Position numbers and translations under genes: made by a program
The notes under the pieces: model-generated
What the model saw: the letters and a program-made list of their open reading frames with translations, nothing else
The model's database searches: none
What the model was told of the DNA's origin: nothing
Shown here: piece by piece, positions 12,099 to 44,476 of the stretch
How positions within the stretch are numbered: position 1 is the stretch's first letter
How the letters are laid out: the number at the start of each line of letters is the position of its first letter
IMG/VR virus record: IMGVR_UViG_3300032225_001437
Coordinates: 1 to 64,000 of that record
Source: a virus
Lineage: Duplodnaviria > Caudoviricetes
Strand: one strand, 5' to 3'
DNA length: 64,000 nt

Positions 12099-13225
12099 TG
12101 CGGTCCTTTTTGATTGTTAAATTTTGTTAACATTTGATTTAATTCTGTCCAAAGTAGATCACTGAATGCACCGCGATAAAAATGGCGATAATTATGCTCA
12201 ACTCGGGATAAACAAGCACGATGTATTTGTTGTCTTTCTGCTGCAGATAAATTATTTAAGTCTTTTAATAACTGGGTGACTTTTTCGATGCGAGCAATAT
12301 CGTCAGTCTCTTCGTCGTAACTTTCATCAAATATACCTGCAAAAGTTTGAAAACCGTATTCACGCAGGTAGGCCAAACTGCCAGCGGGCGCAACCAACAC
12401 AAATGGCATTTCTAATGCTATGGCTTTAAATGTCTTTTCAGTTATGTGAGTTCTGCGCCCAAAATAAACAGTTTCGGTTGGAACATATACCAGGCTATCT
12501 GCTGCTTCTGCAAAATTTCCCAATTGATAACTGTGCATTTCCTGAGATTCTTCGCCGGCAAATAATCTAGGAAGATCAGCCTGTTCAAACACATTGGCAA
12601 TGTCTTGGTATACATGAGTATATTTTTGTGCTATACTAGTTATATCTACACCTTCATATTGACAAGTTCTAGGTGCGCTAATATGATTGTGCTCTAACCC
12701 TTGTTTAAAGACGTTGTATAAAAATAACACACGATGATCACGTTTGCCACCTACAATACGATTGGGACTCATAAAGGTTCGAGTCGGATTGCGGTCTTGA
12801 GCTCTAGGAATTAAAAATGACCGATCGTAACCGCGGAACCAGTCCAAACAGGCCCAGCCATGATAAAAGTAATAGTGTGGCGTCCACCCGTATTGTTGGC
12901 AAAGTTGTTCAACATATTCACCTCGCTCTGAAACTACTACATGTCCAATTGGACTGGGCAACACTGGTTCGCCTTTGTGCCGCCACAGATCTAGATTCCG
13001 ATCATTTACTTCATCAAACAATGGCTCAAACATATCTAAATGCACAGGTTCTTGATCGTGCATGAACACATAATTGTTTTCTGCAATGACATCACTGCCT
13101 AAGTTAAATAAAGCATCTGGGCTAGTATCGCCTGGCGGATCACAAAAAAACAGTCTAGTTCCTGGCCTGTTGTCTCTAAACCAAGGCCAAAATGTATGGT
13201 TGTAAATCTCATCTATTCTAATCAT
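12095..13225 (-). CDS. Hypothetical protein, glycosyltransferase-like C-terminus
   Basis: ETVYF..ITEKTFKAI..PF..YLREYGF motif resembling GT10/GT-B-like proteins. Confidence 0.5.
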   Translation of the reverse strand: MIRIDEIYNHTFWPWFRDNRPGTRLFFCDPPGDTSPDALFNLGSDVIAENNYVFMHDQEPVHLDMFEPLFDEVNDRNLDLWRHKGEPVLPSPIGHVVVSERGEYVEQLCQQYGWTPHYYFYHGWACLDWFRGYDRSFLIPRAQDRNPTRTFMSPNRIVGGKRDHRVLFLYNVFKQGLEHNHISAPRTCQYEGVDITSIAQKYTHVYQDIANVFEQADLPRLFAGEESQEMHSYQLGNFAEAADSLVYVPTETVYFGRRTHITEKTFKAIALEMPFVLVAPAGSLAYLREYGFQTFAGIFDESYDEETDDIARIEKVTQLLKDLNNLSAAERQQIHRACLSRVEHNYRHFYRGAFSDLLWTELNQMLTKFNNQKGPQ

Positions 13226-43039: not shown

Positions 43040-43345
43040 TCAAGCAGTCAGCCACTTTTCATTGGATTCCAATACCAGACTTTCTGCTCCATCATATTCA
43101 TCAATGCGGAAACGAGCTCCTGCTGGCACCCACTTTACTTCTAAATCTTTCAGCCCTCCGCAATACACATCTGGATACTTTAATTCCATATAGGTAACAA
43201 TTTTATCAAAATTTTCTTGCTCAACCCACTCTACAATGCTAGGATCATAGATCAATTGTTCATTGCCGTGCCAGGTATACCAACCAGCACCGTAGCCAGG
43301 GCTTACCAACACAGCTACTCGACCATCACGAATTAATTTTTTCAT
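43040..43345 (-). CDS. Hypothetical protein
   Basis: VLVSPGYGAGW...EYDGAE. Confidence 0.75.
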   Translation of the reverse strand: MKKLIRDGRVAVLVSPGYGAGWYTWHGNEQLIYDPSIVEWVEQENFDKIVTYMELKYPDVYCGGLKDLEVKWVPAGARFRIDEYDGAESLVLESNEKWLTA

Positions 43346-43496
43346 TGTTTTTTAATTTCTTTACTGCATCAATTTGTGCTATCATCGCTTCGACCTGTGC
43401 TCGGGCCCGAGCGACCTTACTCTCAAGCAAGGCCATACGTTCTTCTGGATTTAAAAAAAATTTATTTTCTTTGTTGTCTGTCATATTTTTCTCTCA

Positions 43497-43570
43497 ATAA
43501 AAAACCCCGGACTGTTTAGTTTCGGGGTTGTTGAATAAAGTTAAAACTTACTGCTATTCAAAACCCACCC
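43497..43570 (-). terminator. Overlapping antiterminator/terminator (attenuator)
   Basis: Terminator AACCCCG..CGGGGTT-TTTT; competing 13-bp stem GGGTTTTGAATAG/TTATTCAACAACCC. Confidence 0.75.
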
Positions 43571-43649
43571 TACAATCTTCACAGCCATAGACCCACAGTC
43601 CAATTATTGGATTGTTTGCTAAAGAAGGATGCAAGTTATTAATCATCAT
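43554..43649 (-). CDS. Putative leaderless attenuator leader peptide MMINNLHPSLANNPIIGLWVYGCEDCRVGFE
   Basis: ATG 7 nt after the -10; stop codon lies in the antiterminator 5' arm. Confidence 0.7.
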   Translation of the reverse strand: MMINNLHPSLANNPIIGLWVYGCEDCRVGFE

Positions 43650-43656
43650 AGTAAGT

Positions 43657-43685
43657 ATTATACAGGTTTATTTATGCCGTGTCAA
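43657..43685 (-). promoter_or_regulatory. Perfect sigma70 consensus promoter with an embedded CATAAATA late-like motif
   Basis: TTGACA-17-TATAAT. Confidence 0.85.
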
Positions 43686-43703
43686 CCAGCGTATTGCCAA
43701 AAT

Positions 43704-43726
43704 AAAAGGCCCCGAAGGGCCTTTTT
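43704..43726. terminator. Bidirectional Rho-independent terminator
   Basis: AAAAGGCCC-CGAA-GGGCCTTTTT. Confidence 0.85.
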
Positions 43727-43750
43727 GAGAACTCTAATCAAACTGTTTGA

Positions 43751-44476
43751 TTAGAATGATTTTGCTACAGAGAAAACTGCGGCATTGCGATACAACTTTT
43801 GACCATTTACGGTGTTGGCTGTGTTGAACGCTGTAGTCTTGTCGCCGTTGGTGTAATACTTGGCGGCCAAGTTCCAACCTTGTAAGTCGTAACCTACACC
43901 AAAGTTGTAGTCGTTATAGTCCAATGAAGAACTATTAGCAACATTAGTCTTACCTGCGTGAGCAAGCAAACTGATCTTTGAACCAGCGATTGGATATGCT
44001 ACATCAGCTTGGTAGTATGCTGTGCCTTGAGCATTGGCTGTACCAAAGTAGCCATTACCCAATGTACGATTATACTTGACGCTTACTGGACCATAACCTA
44101 GACCAACATAACCTTCGTATGTGTCAAAGTTTGAACCTGTACGAGCTGAGGTAGTGGCACGTGGATAAAAATAATTATAAGAACCAACATCAAGTGTTAG
44201 ACCTTTGTAAATATCTTTCTTCCAACCAGCATATACATCTGACTCAACACCTGAACCGTTTGTGTAAACTTGTGAGCTTACTGAACTGTTCCAGTTACCG
44301 ATATAGAAACCGCTTGAGTGAGCGTAGTCAATACCGCCTTGGACAGCAGGAGCATTTTGGGATTGGCTGATACCACGGAAGCGGTAGTCTGAGGTCAATC
44401 CTAAATTGCCAGATACTTGAGCGTGAGCTGAAGTAATGCCAGCCAATACGAATAATGCTAATAATAATTTCTTCAT
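43751..44476 (-). CDS. TorF-family putative outer-membrane porin
   Basis: Signal peptide, TSDYRFRGISQ..PAVQGGIDY..GFYIGNW, C-terminal Phe. Confidence 0.88.
   Translation of the reverse strand: MKKLLLALFVLAGITSAHAQVSGNLGLTSDYRFRGISQSQNAPAVQGGIDYAHSSGFYIGNWNSSVSSQVYTNGSGVESDVYAGWKKDIYKGLTLDVGSYNYFYPRATTSARTGSNFDTYEGYVGLGYGPVSVKYNRTLGNGYFGTANAQGTAYYQADVAYPIAGSKISLLAHAGKTNVANSSSLDYNDYNFGVGYDLQGWNLAAKYYTNGDKTTAFNTANTVNGQKLYRNAAVFSVAKSF

Follow-up and report, generated by a model that had tools for sequence, protein, structure and literature searches.

A putative leader-peptide attenuator at the head of tRNA arrays in large phages

Phage tRNA genes have been known for decades; to our knowledge, hardly anything is known about the control of their expression. 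The locus described here raises the question of whether a phage may set transcription into its tRNA operon according to how ribosomes read a short leader ORF (open reading frame). The locus lies in the IMG/VR virus record IMGVR_UViG_3300032225_001437, of which the first 64 kb (positions 1 to 64,000, called the window below) were analysed; since this 156-kb record is rated 43% complete by CheckV, the source is a very large phage. The element in question spans 43726-43497 on the minus strand and consists of an insulating terminator, a promoter, a 31-codon ORF, an antiterminator and an intrinsic terminator. Judging from its sequence, we consider it fairly likely that this element is a leader-peptide transcription attenuator, which would set transcription into the tRNA operon from a strong early-type promoter. 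The analysis shows the parts, how they are conserved and covary, their place at the head of tRNA arrays, and an abnormal leader composition that matches the arrays.

Parts of the element and its family

All features around the leader element are on the minus strand, and the element itself is made up of the following parts.

43726-43699, minus strand: intrinsic terminator ending the upstream Gcw_chp-family gene (GGCCC-TTCG-GGGCC hairpin, then a T-run)
43685-43657, minus strand: sigma-70 promoter (TTGACA 43685-43680, 17-nt spacer, TATAAT 43662-43657), 12/12 match
43649-43554, minus strand: leader ORF of 31 codons plus TAG (stop 43556-43554), with its ATG 7 nt past the -10 box and 17 amino-acid types
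43610-43600, minus strand: mid-ORF hairpin CCAAT-A-ATTGG, present in the minimum free energy (MFE) fold
43566-43525, minus strand: antiterminator hairpin of 12 bp with one bulged C (5' arm GGGTTTTGAATA at 43566-43555, containing the stop; 3' arm at 43537-43525)
43529-43497, minus strand: intrinsic terminator (AACCCCG 43529-43523 and CGGGGTT 43509-43503 in a 7-bp stem, loop AACTAAACAG of 9-10 nt, T6)

The terminator at 43726-43699 insulates the leader promoter, which is one of just two sigma-70 promoters with a 12/12 match in the 8.5 kb scanned. An earlier reading of this DNA from its letters alone, called here the original prediction, had described an insulated perfect sigma-70 promoter followed by a 31-codon ORF and a terminator, and all three were located where it had placed them. 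It had also proposed an antiterminator of 13 bp in which the last codons and the stop capture the terminator arm; this arrangement held, with the length corrected to 12 bp and a bulged C. In partial-transcript folds, the final CCC of the antiterminator 3' arm is the start of the terminator 5' arm. As the ATG (43649) stands just 7 nt past the -10 box, there is no room for a Shine-Dalgarno sequence. The position of the ATG agrees with the original prediction, which had called the ORF leaderless; the leaderless status itself we infer solely from this spacing.

Concerning relatives, a DNA search of cultured phages gave no match. The 101-aa ORF downstream of the element was used to fetch 72 viral loci, and a BLAST search of the element against them found it in L002 only, the neighbourhood being rearranged in the others. 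The L002 element has the same promoter and terminator and an ORF of similar length and different sequence, ending at the same motif. The family was gathered from IMG/VR by the terminator-loop motif alone, with no selection for ORF, promoter or tRNA context. This search yielded 43 loci, corresponding to 29 distinct elements in 13 lineages plus some plain-terminator sites; the 29 elements come from uncultured, mostly freshwater, large phages.

All 29 elements have a promoter of at least 10/12 with a 17-nt spacer, an open frame of 20-53 codons that is leaderless in most, and a stop codon that ends 28-36 nt ahead of the loop motif; start, frame and stop position are kept in every one of them. The ATG is located 5-11 nt past the -10 box, with two exceptions that have leaders of 18-33 nt. 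The original prediction had expected the ORF and the antiterminator to be conserved in related phages with covarying stems, and this proved right for the ORF, its start, its stop position and the antiterminator.

The switch itself was analysed by folding each element separately, up to the point before the terminator 3' arm is made. The terminator CCC(Y) was paired with GGG at the end of the ORF in 29/29 folds, the stop codon being in or beside that arm, and the antiterminator was stabler than dinucleotide shuffles in 27 of the 29 elements (mean z = -3.7). Depending on the element, the full-length MFE structure was either the antiterminator or the terminator, indicating that the two are nearly iso-energetic. 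For the analysis of covariation, a covariance model was built on 13 sequences and used to align all matches, instead of MAFFT alone, which misaligned the 5' arms. Over the 10 modelled pairs, 87% of cells were paired, compared with 71.5±1.4% after shuffling; compensatory changes occurred in 8 of the 10 pairs, and doubly changed cells numbered 47, against 14.7 in shuffles. The covariation score was 0.39 versus 0.15 (0/500 shuffles), and slid controls gave at most 0.08.

The pattern of change in the leaders is consistent with a translated ORF. Between the window leader and that of L081, there are 7 synonymous and 4 non-synonymous differences (ratio of non-synonymous to synonymous change, pN/pS, 0.13) and one in-frame 9-nt indel. 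Several close pairs have pN/pS of 0.1-0.5, and indels are in frame. Among the seven leaders that use all 20 amino acids, the peptide identity between lineages is just 21-42%. Such a conserved frame with a free sequence is the pattern expected of a regulatory ORF, in which translation would matter more than the product.

Wherever sequence past the element is available, it is nearly always found at the 5' end of a co-oriented tRNA array, and tRNAs upstream of it are few or absent. In the complete 344-kb genome G005, which has terminal repeats, all 28 tRNAs are downstream of the element. Counted from the beginning of the loop motif, the first tRNA begins after 38 nt in L086, L087 and L093 and after 50 nt in L084, a few bases past the T-tract; because this leaves no room for another promoter, the tRNAs of these four elements must be transcribed by read-through. 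A second putative attenuator, an independent instance of the same architecture with unrelated sequence, was found in the phage of L076 (record G002), at L119:4206-4400 (+). It has an 11/12 promoter, an ATG 5 nt past the -10 box, a 35-codon ORF of 18 amino-acid types whose end is overlapped by a GCGGGT:ACCCGC antiterminator, and a CCCGCC/GGCGGG terminator, and it precedes a sub-array of Glu, Tyr, Asp, Arg, His and Met tRNAs. A search by the loop motif therefore does not capture the whole family.

Several further observations concern the parts of the element. Two near-identical promoter-like units GGTGTTATACTAGAGACTAGTTAG are present at L119:4400-4560 (+), between the second attenuator and its tRNAs. 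The promoter-spacer motif ATAAATAA (window 43679-43663, minus strand) is conserved across the family, usually within the spacer, and is not found in the window's five other strong promoters; it could be a candidate binding site or simply inherited sequence. The mid-ORF hairpin at 43610-43600 is possibly an RNA polymerase pause hairpin; it does not compete with the antiterminator arm in folds, and similar CCA...UGG hairpins were spotted by eye in most lineages. The same terminator hairpin serves as a plain terminator in L099, L106 and L108 and at the phasin gene of L117, a Usitatibacteraceae metagenome-assembled genome (MAG). An identical 9-10 nt loop GGAACTAAACACTCC stands after ordinary genes at L099:4511-4527 and L117:7509-7529 (-), and an SDR reductase gene comes after the phasin gene and hairpin in L117; the terminator loop is common to phages and a bacterium. 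A weak match of the covariance model at window 13142-13193 was judged not to be such an element. Rfam held no family for the element, either for the whole window at gathering thresholds or for 43300-43900 at E up to 10. A reading of the leader ORF as the precursor of a ribosomally synthesized and post-translationally modified peptide was set aside, as there is no adjacent modifying enzyme and the downstream genes vary.

Leader composition and the tRNA arrays

The tRNA genes downstream of the element in the window are as follows.

42335-40845, minus strand: 11 co-oriented tRNAs, namely Asp, Trp, Met, Pro, Tyr, Glu, Leu-UAA, Gly-UCC, His, Cys and Leu-CAG
39764-39329, minus strand: distal tRNAs Ser(ACU), Arg(UCU) and Thr(UGU), three more downstream species

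Each of the 11 proximal tRNAs has a cognate codon in the leader ORF, as originally predicted, including tRNA-Tyr(GUA) at 41456-41375, which was found by Rfam and missed by ARAGORN. The ORF also uses 17 amino acids without a run of any single one, again in agreement with the original prediction; Lys, Gln and Thr do not occur in it. Coverage of 11/11 was reached in 0.3% of random 31-codon windows from this genome's long ORFs (P = 0.003), and when all downstream tRNA species were counted, the leader covered 12 of 14 (P = 0.007). The permutation of codon coverage that had been suggested at the outset thus gave a result above chance.

The composition of the family was evaluated with one representative per lineage (13), for which fuller arrays and background genes were fetched. 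The leaders covered 202 array tRNA species, compared with 147.8±6.4 in equal-length windows of the phages' own ORFs (z = 8.5), an excess reached in 0 of 20000 samples. Amino-acid types summed over the 13 leaders amounted to 230 versus 199.6±6.1 (z = 5), and in 7 of the 13 lineages all 20 amino acids occur within 37-52 codons. The excess remained against a nucleotide-shuffle null (z = 4.8). It was also present when the count was limited to codons lying 12-15 nt or more ahead of the hairpin arm, where a stalled ribosome would not mask the arm, with z = 6.3-7.1 for coverage and z = 3.6-4.5 for diversity. Random replacement of 70% of positions retained all 20 amino acids with P = 0.005-0.06 per leader, so that descent from one all-20 ancestor cannot explain the breadth.

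The leaders also match their own arrays in particular. When the pairing of leaders and arrays was shuffled, the own-array pairing was superior, with permutation P = 0.0006-0.001 for coverage and P = 0.001-0.006 for the codons read. Three small-alphabet leaders illustrate this match.

L087: 81% of codons readable by the array versus 49% expected (Fisher P = 0.010)
L084: 8/8 species covered, and 60% of codons readable versus 19% expected (Fisher P = 0.010)
L076: 94% of codons readable versus 73% expected (Fisher P = 0.032)

The amino acids not used in the L076 leader include Asp, His, Tyr and Arg, whose tRNAs are located upstream in that genome, behind the second leaderless ORF; a further tRNA-Arg(UCG) lies downstream of the element. 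These data bear out, for 13 lineages, the expectation that leader composition would track tRNA content across related phages.

Proposed mechanism and rival explanations

For the mechanism proposed here, we infer the transcription start, the translation of the ORF, the efficiency of termination, the direction of the switch and the factor that limits the ribosome in vivo. RNA polymerase would start at or beside the AUG, and a 70S ribosome would translate the 31-codon leader. A ribosome arriving at the stop in step with the polymerase would cover the antiterminator 5' arm (43566-43555), which would leave the CCC at 43527-43525 free for the terminator stem, and transcription would end at the T-tract, at about 43499. 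With a ribosome delayed in approximately the first 22 codons, or never loaded, the antiterminator would form first and hold the terminator 5' arm, and read-through would reach the 52-aa and 101-aa ORFs, the phosphoesterase and the tRNAs. With an alphabet this wide (17 amino acids in this leader, all 20 in those of many relatives), read-through would rise when almost any class of codon is decoded slowly, and the outcome would be a negative feedback between decoding capacity and phage tRNA output. On the evidence of the sequence, slow reading by ribosomes probably leads the phage to make more tRNA. A stall in the last seven or so codons (Asp25, Cys26, Arg27 onward) should favour termination, being too near the 5' arm. 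The protein genes that such read-through would meet ahead of the tRNAs are listed here.

43484-43326, minus strand: 52-aa coiled-coil-like ORF, the first gene past the terminator, with its own ribosome-binding site 15 nt after the T-tract
43345-43040, minus strand: 101-aa ORF of unknown function, conserved in 72 viral loci
42951-42346, minus strand: metallophosphoesterase (PF12850/PF00149; phrog_547 at 2.8e-50), with its own promoter at 43008-42980 (11/12)

Beyond this switch, we tentatively suggest a modular tRNA homeostat, an idea that is somewhat less than probable on the sequences at hand. Each tRNA block would carry its own leaderless "test" ORF with an alphabet tuned to the block, and a drop in host decoding of any sampled amino acid would switch on replacement tRNAs. 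Possible examples are the all-20 leaders at near-complete arrays, the restricted alphabets at small arrays, and the two leaders for two sub-arrays in one genome. The drop in decoding could stem from host shut-off, codon mismatch or a tRNA-cleaving defence; the anticodon-nuclease defence that the original prediction had named as a trigger is speculation.

A number of points weigh against the attenuator reading. The window by itself would leave the question undecided, because its codon coverage was noticed after the fact. In the window alone, the share of leader codons readable by the array is 0.48 versus 0.37±0.10 (P = 0.16, up to 0.25), the 17 amino-acid types compare with 14.4 expected (P = 0.13), and the antiterminator is no stabler than dinucleotide shuffles of the 5' half (z = -0.8, P = 0.165). 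Three ORFs separate the terminator from the tRNAs, 1.2 kb away, and there are promoters at 43008-42980 and, within the 11-tRNA array, at 42172-42144, so a caveat of the original prediction about additional promoters and intervening ORFs was well placed; at most part of the tRNA transcription would be gated in this window. As for the family, the 13 lineages are homologous and not fully independent, the covariation result comes from an alignment that had been fitted to the structure, and some lineages have a pN/pS of about 1. The element has no cultured relative, and a protein search with the 101-aa ORF gave at most 47% identity, mostly to Vibrio phages. No region-1 anti-antiterminator was found in the folds, for which reason untranslated RNA should read through.

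Other points of this kind concern what the leader samples. The choice among synonymous codons does not track the anticodons of the arrays (120 observed versus 110.6 expected, z = 1.45). The claim of one codon per anticodon was therefore dropped in favour of sampling at the level of amino acids. The Asp and Arg codons of the window leader, together with one Cys and one Glu codon, fall within its last seven codons and are probably not sensing codons. The leader of the window is broader than its array (17 types versus 13, Fisher P = 0.27), and that of lineage B has 18 types for 6 downstream tRNA species (96-kb record, 7 tRNA matches). Since the leader is often wider than the array, it is better described as sensing elongation through all amino acids than as a strict list with one codon per tRNA. 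Of the OR-gate sensor of individual tRNAs proposed originally, the sampling of several amino acids is supported; the sensing of isoacceptor codons is not, and Asp is probably unsensed.

This breadth leads to the rival explanation that is the least unlikely of three, although we still regard it as unlikely: the same RNA switch would report general translation status (the availability of any amino acid, the capacity for 70S/leaderless initiation, or ribosome numbers), and the tRNA genes would be only some of the gated early genes. The signal is indeed at the amino-acid rather than the isoacceptor level, all 20 amino acids occur in many leaders regardless of the tRNAs in the array, and the leaders of lineage B and the window exceed their arrays. 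Protein genes come first past the terminator in the window and in many relatives and, with no anti-antiterminator, failed initiation would likewise give read-through. However, a general reporter does not account well for an element that stands ahead of tRNA arrays in almost every locus and in four cases is immediately adjacent to a tRNA, for the fit of restricted alphabets to restricted arrays in L087, L084 and L076, or for the superiority of own-array over shuffled pairing (P≈0.001).

The second rival is an ordinary small gene: a strongly expressed micro-protein with a function of its own would have its own terminator, and the hairpin over the stop codon would do no more than stabilise the mRNA or tune translation termination. 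This reading would agree with the conservation of the ORF, with pN/pS below 1 in several close pairs, with residues that recur across lineages (one Trp and an N-S/N-D-R stretch) and with the use of the same hairpin as a plain terminator elsewhere. We regard this as improbable: start, frame, stop and alphabet breadth are kept despite the low identity noted above and pN/pS of about 1 in several lineages, one would not expect a functional micro-protein to use all 20 amino acids in about 40 residues, in every element the covarying hairpin overlaps both the stop codon and the terminator arm, and in four elements the tRNAs can be transcribed only by reading through the terminator. A non-coding small RNA, whose terminator loop binds a protein or RNA in trans and whose open frame is incidental, seems to us very improbable. 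The unit of about 150 nt with its own promoter and terminator would suit it, as would the 9-10 nt loop, invariant across very divergent elements and present in the bacterial MAG; yet this invariance is partly an artefact of searching with the loop, and the promoter-adjacent ATG frame to a fixed point, with in-frame indels, is kept in 29/29 elements. Furthermore, the RNA matched no Rfam family, and the complement of the loop, as a kissing or target site, occurs at chance level in the window (7 matches versus 6.9 expected). All three rivals fit the overlap of stop, hairpin and terminator, the alphabet breadth and the abutting tRNAs less well than the leader-peptide attenuator does.

Gene neighbourhood and comparison with known systems

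Features upstream of the element in the window are given below.

45804-45776, minus strand: 11/12 promoter of a separate tRNA-Met(CAU)
45767-45693, minus strand: tRNA-Met(CAU)
44981-44664, minus strand: two-piece (permuted) transfer-messenger RNA (tmRNA) of betaproteobacterial type (RF01850, 124 bits; RF04321, 110 bits)
44476-43751, minus strand: Gcw_chp-family gene (PF09694, 4.7e-51)

The separate tRNA-Met(CAU) starts about 8 nt past its own -10 box and is therefore outside the control of the attenuator. The phage-encoded tmRNA, which ARAGORN reads as having a 29-residue tag, is also carried by the related phages L083, L086, L087, L090 and L112, and its betaproteobacterial type hints at a betaproteobacterial host. 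On the downstream side, the 52-aa ORF gave no family match in Pfam or PHROG, and a homologue of it is also located 3' of the element in L002. The tRNA-Ser with the unusual anticodon ACU (window 39764-39675, minus strand) recurs in relatives (L118:12093 and L095).

Related arrays contain further RNA genes. GOLLD RNA genes (RF02032, 188-212 bits) are in or beside the arrays at L087:10890-11350 (+) and L094:1825-2291 (-), and that of L094 is directly upstream of the attenuator promoter. ARAGORN reported amber-reading tRNAs with a CUA anticodon, labelled "Pyl", within arrays at L119:5545 and L120:1694, which are possible suppressor tRNAs. A conserved, structured-looking stretch of 150-200 nt lies directly past the terminator at L076:3490-3680, L113:4620-4800 and L002:1040-1160, and also in L077, L094, L103 and L112; it carries the motifs GGAAACGAGGTCCTG and AAACGGGCGG and is not present in this genome fragment. 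This stretch (about 190 nt) has no credible ORF and no Rfam match; it is neither a tmRNA nor GOLLD.

Concerning the significance of these findings, phage tRNAs can offset the loss of host tRNAs and tRNA-cleaving defences (PMC10264068, PMC11555353, PMC11464382), and full-text literature searches turned up no description of an attenuator preceding phage tRNA arrays. A ribosome-read attenuator at tRNA arrays, if true, would link decoding capacity and tRNA supply in a closed feedback loop, and a mechanism that textbooks describe for amino-acid operons would then apply to tRNA genes as well. The homeostat, if true, would be the first instance of ribosome-mediated attenuation acting on tRNA genes, and it would give the phage an inbuilt answer to immunity that targets tRNAs. 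The all-amino-acid leader would represent a new design principle, with selection on alphabet breadth and not on peptide sequence, and this breadth would be a simple signature for finding further such switches. As a compact unit, the element could also be put to use in sensing translation stress.

The enterobacterial attenuators trpL, hisL, leuL, thrL and pheL consist of a short promoter-proximal ORF, a terminator and an exclusive antiterminator, with the stop placed so that a finishing ribosome masks the antiterminator arm. The element resembles the trp/his type in its short ORF next to the promoter, its intrinsic terminator, its exclusive antiterminator and the stop in the arm. It differs in having no run of control codons and instead a breadth of 17-20 amino acids that matches the array, in an apparently leaderless ORF, in that no region-1 anti-antiterminator was found in the folds, in being phage-borne, and in the downstream genes, which are tRNA genes and small phage ORFs and not biosynthetic enzymes. 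The best match to the leader families of Rfam was a sub-threshold Thr_leader in L113, with 25 bits versus a threshold of 55.

A T-box binds one uncharged tRNA via its specifier loop and T-box sequence, without translation. The element is alike in that read-through would report the state of the tRNA pool, and different in that it would read this pool through a translating ribosome; a T-box riboswitch was rejected as a candidate, since no T-box family was found at 43300-43900 (Rfam, E up to 10) or in the window (gathering thresholds).

The leaderless polycysteine short ORFs of mycobacteria, which are cysteine-responsive attenuators (bioRxiv 10.1101/834739), are likewise leaderless short ORFs at the 5' end of an operon acting as translation-dependent cis-regulators; those are Cys-rich and bacterial and control cysteine-related genes. 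The closest likeness is to the multivalent attenuators, namely the ilvGMEDA and ilvBN leaders and the Leu-rich attenuator peptide of the S. aureus ilv-leu operon (PMC5794164), in which several amino acids are sensed by one leader with OR-type logic. Sensing in those leaders is limited to 2-3 related amino acids from one pathway, whereas the element described here covers most or all amino acids, and its output would be tRNA genes.

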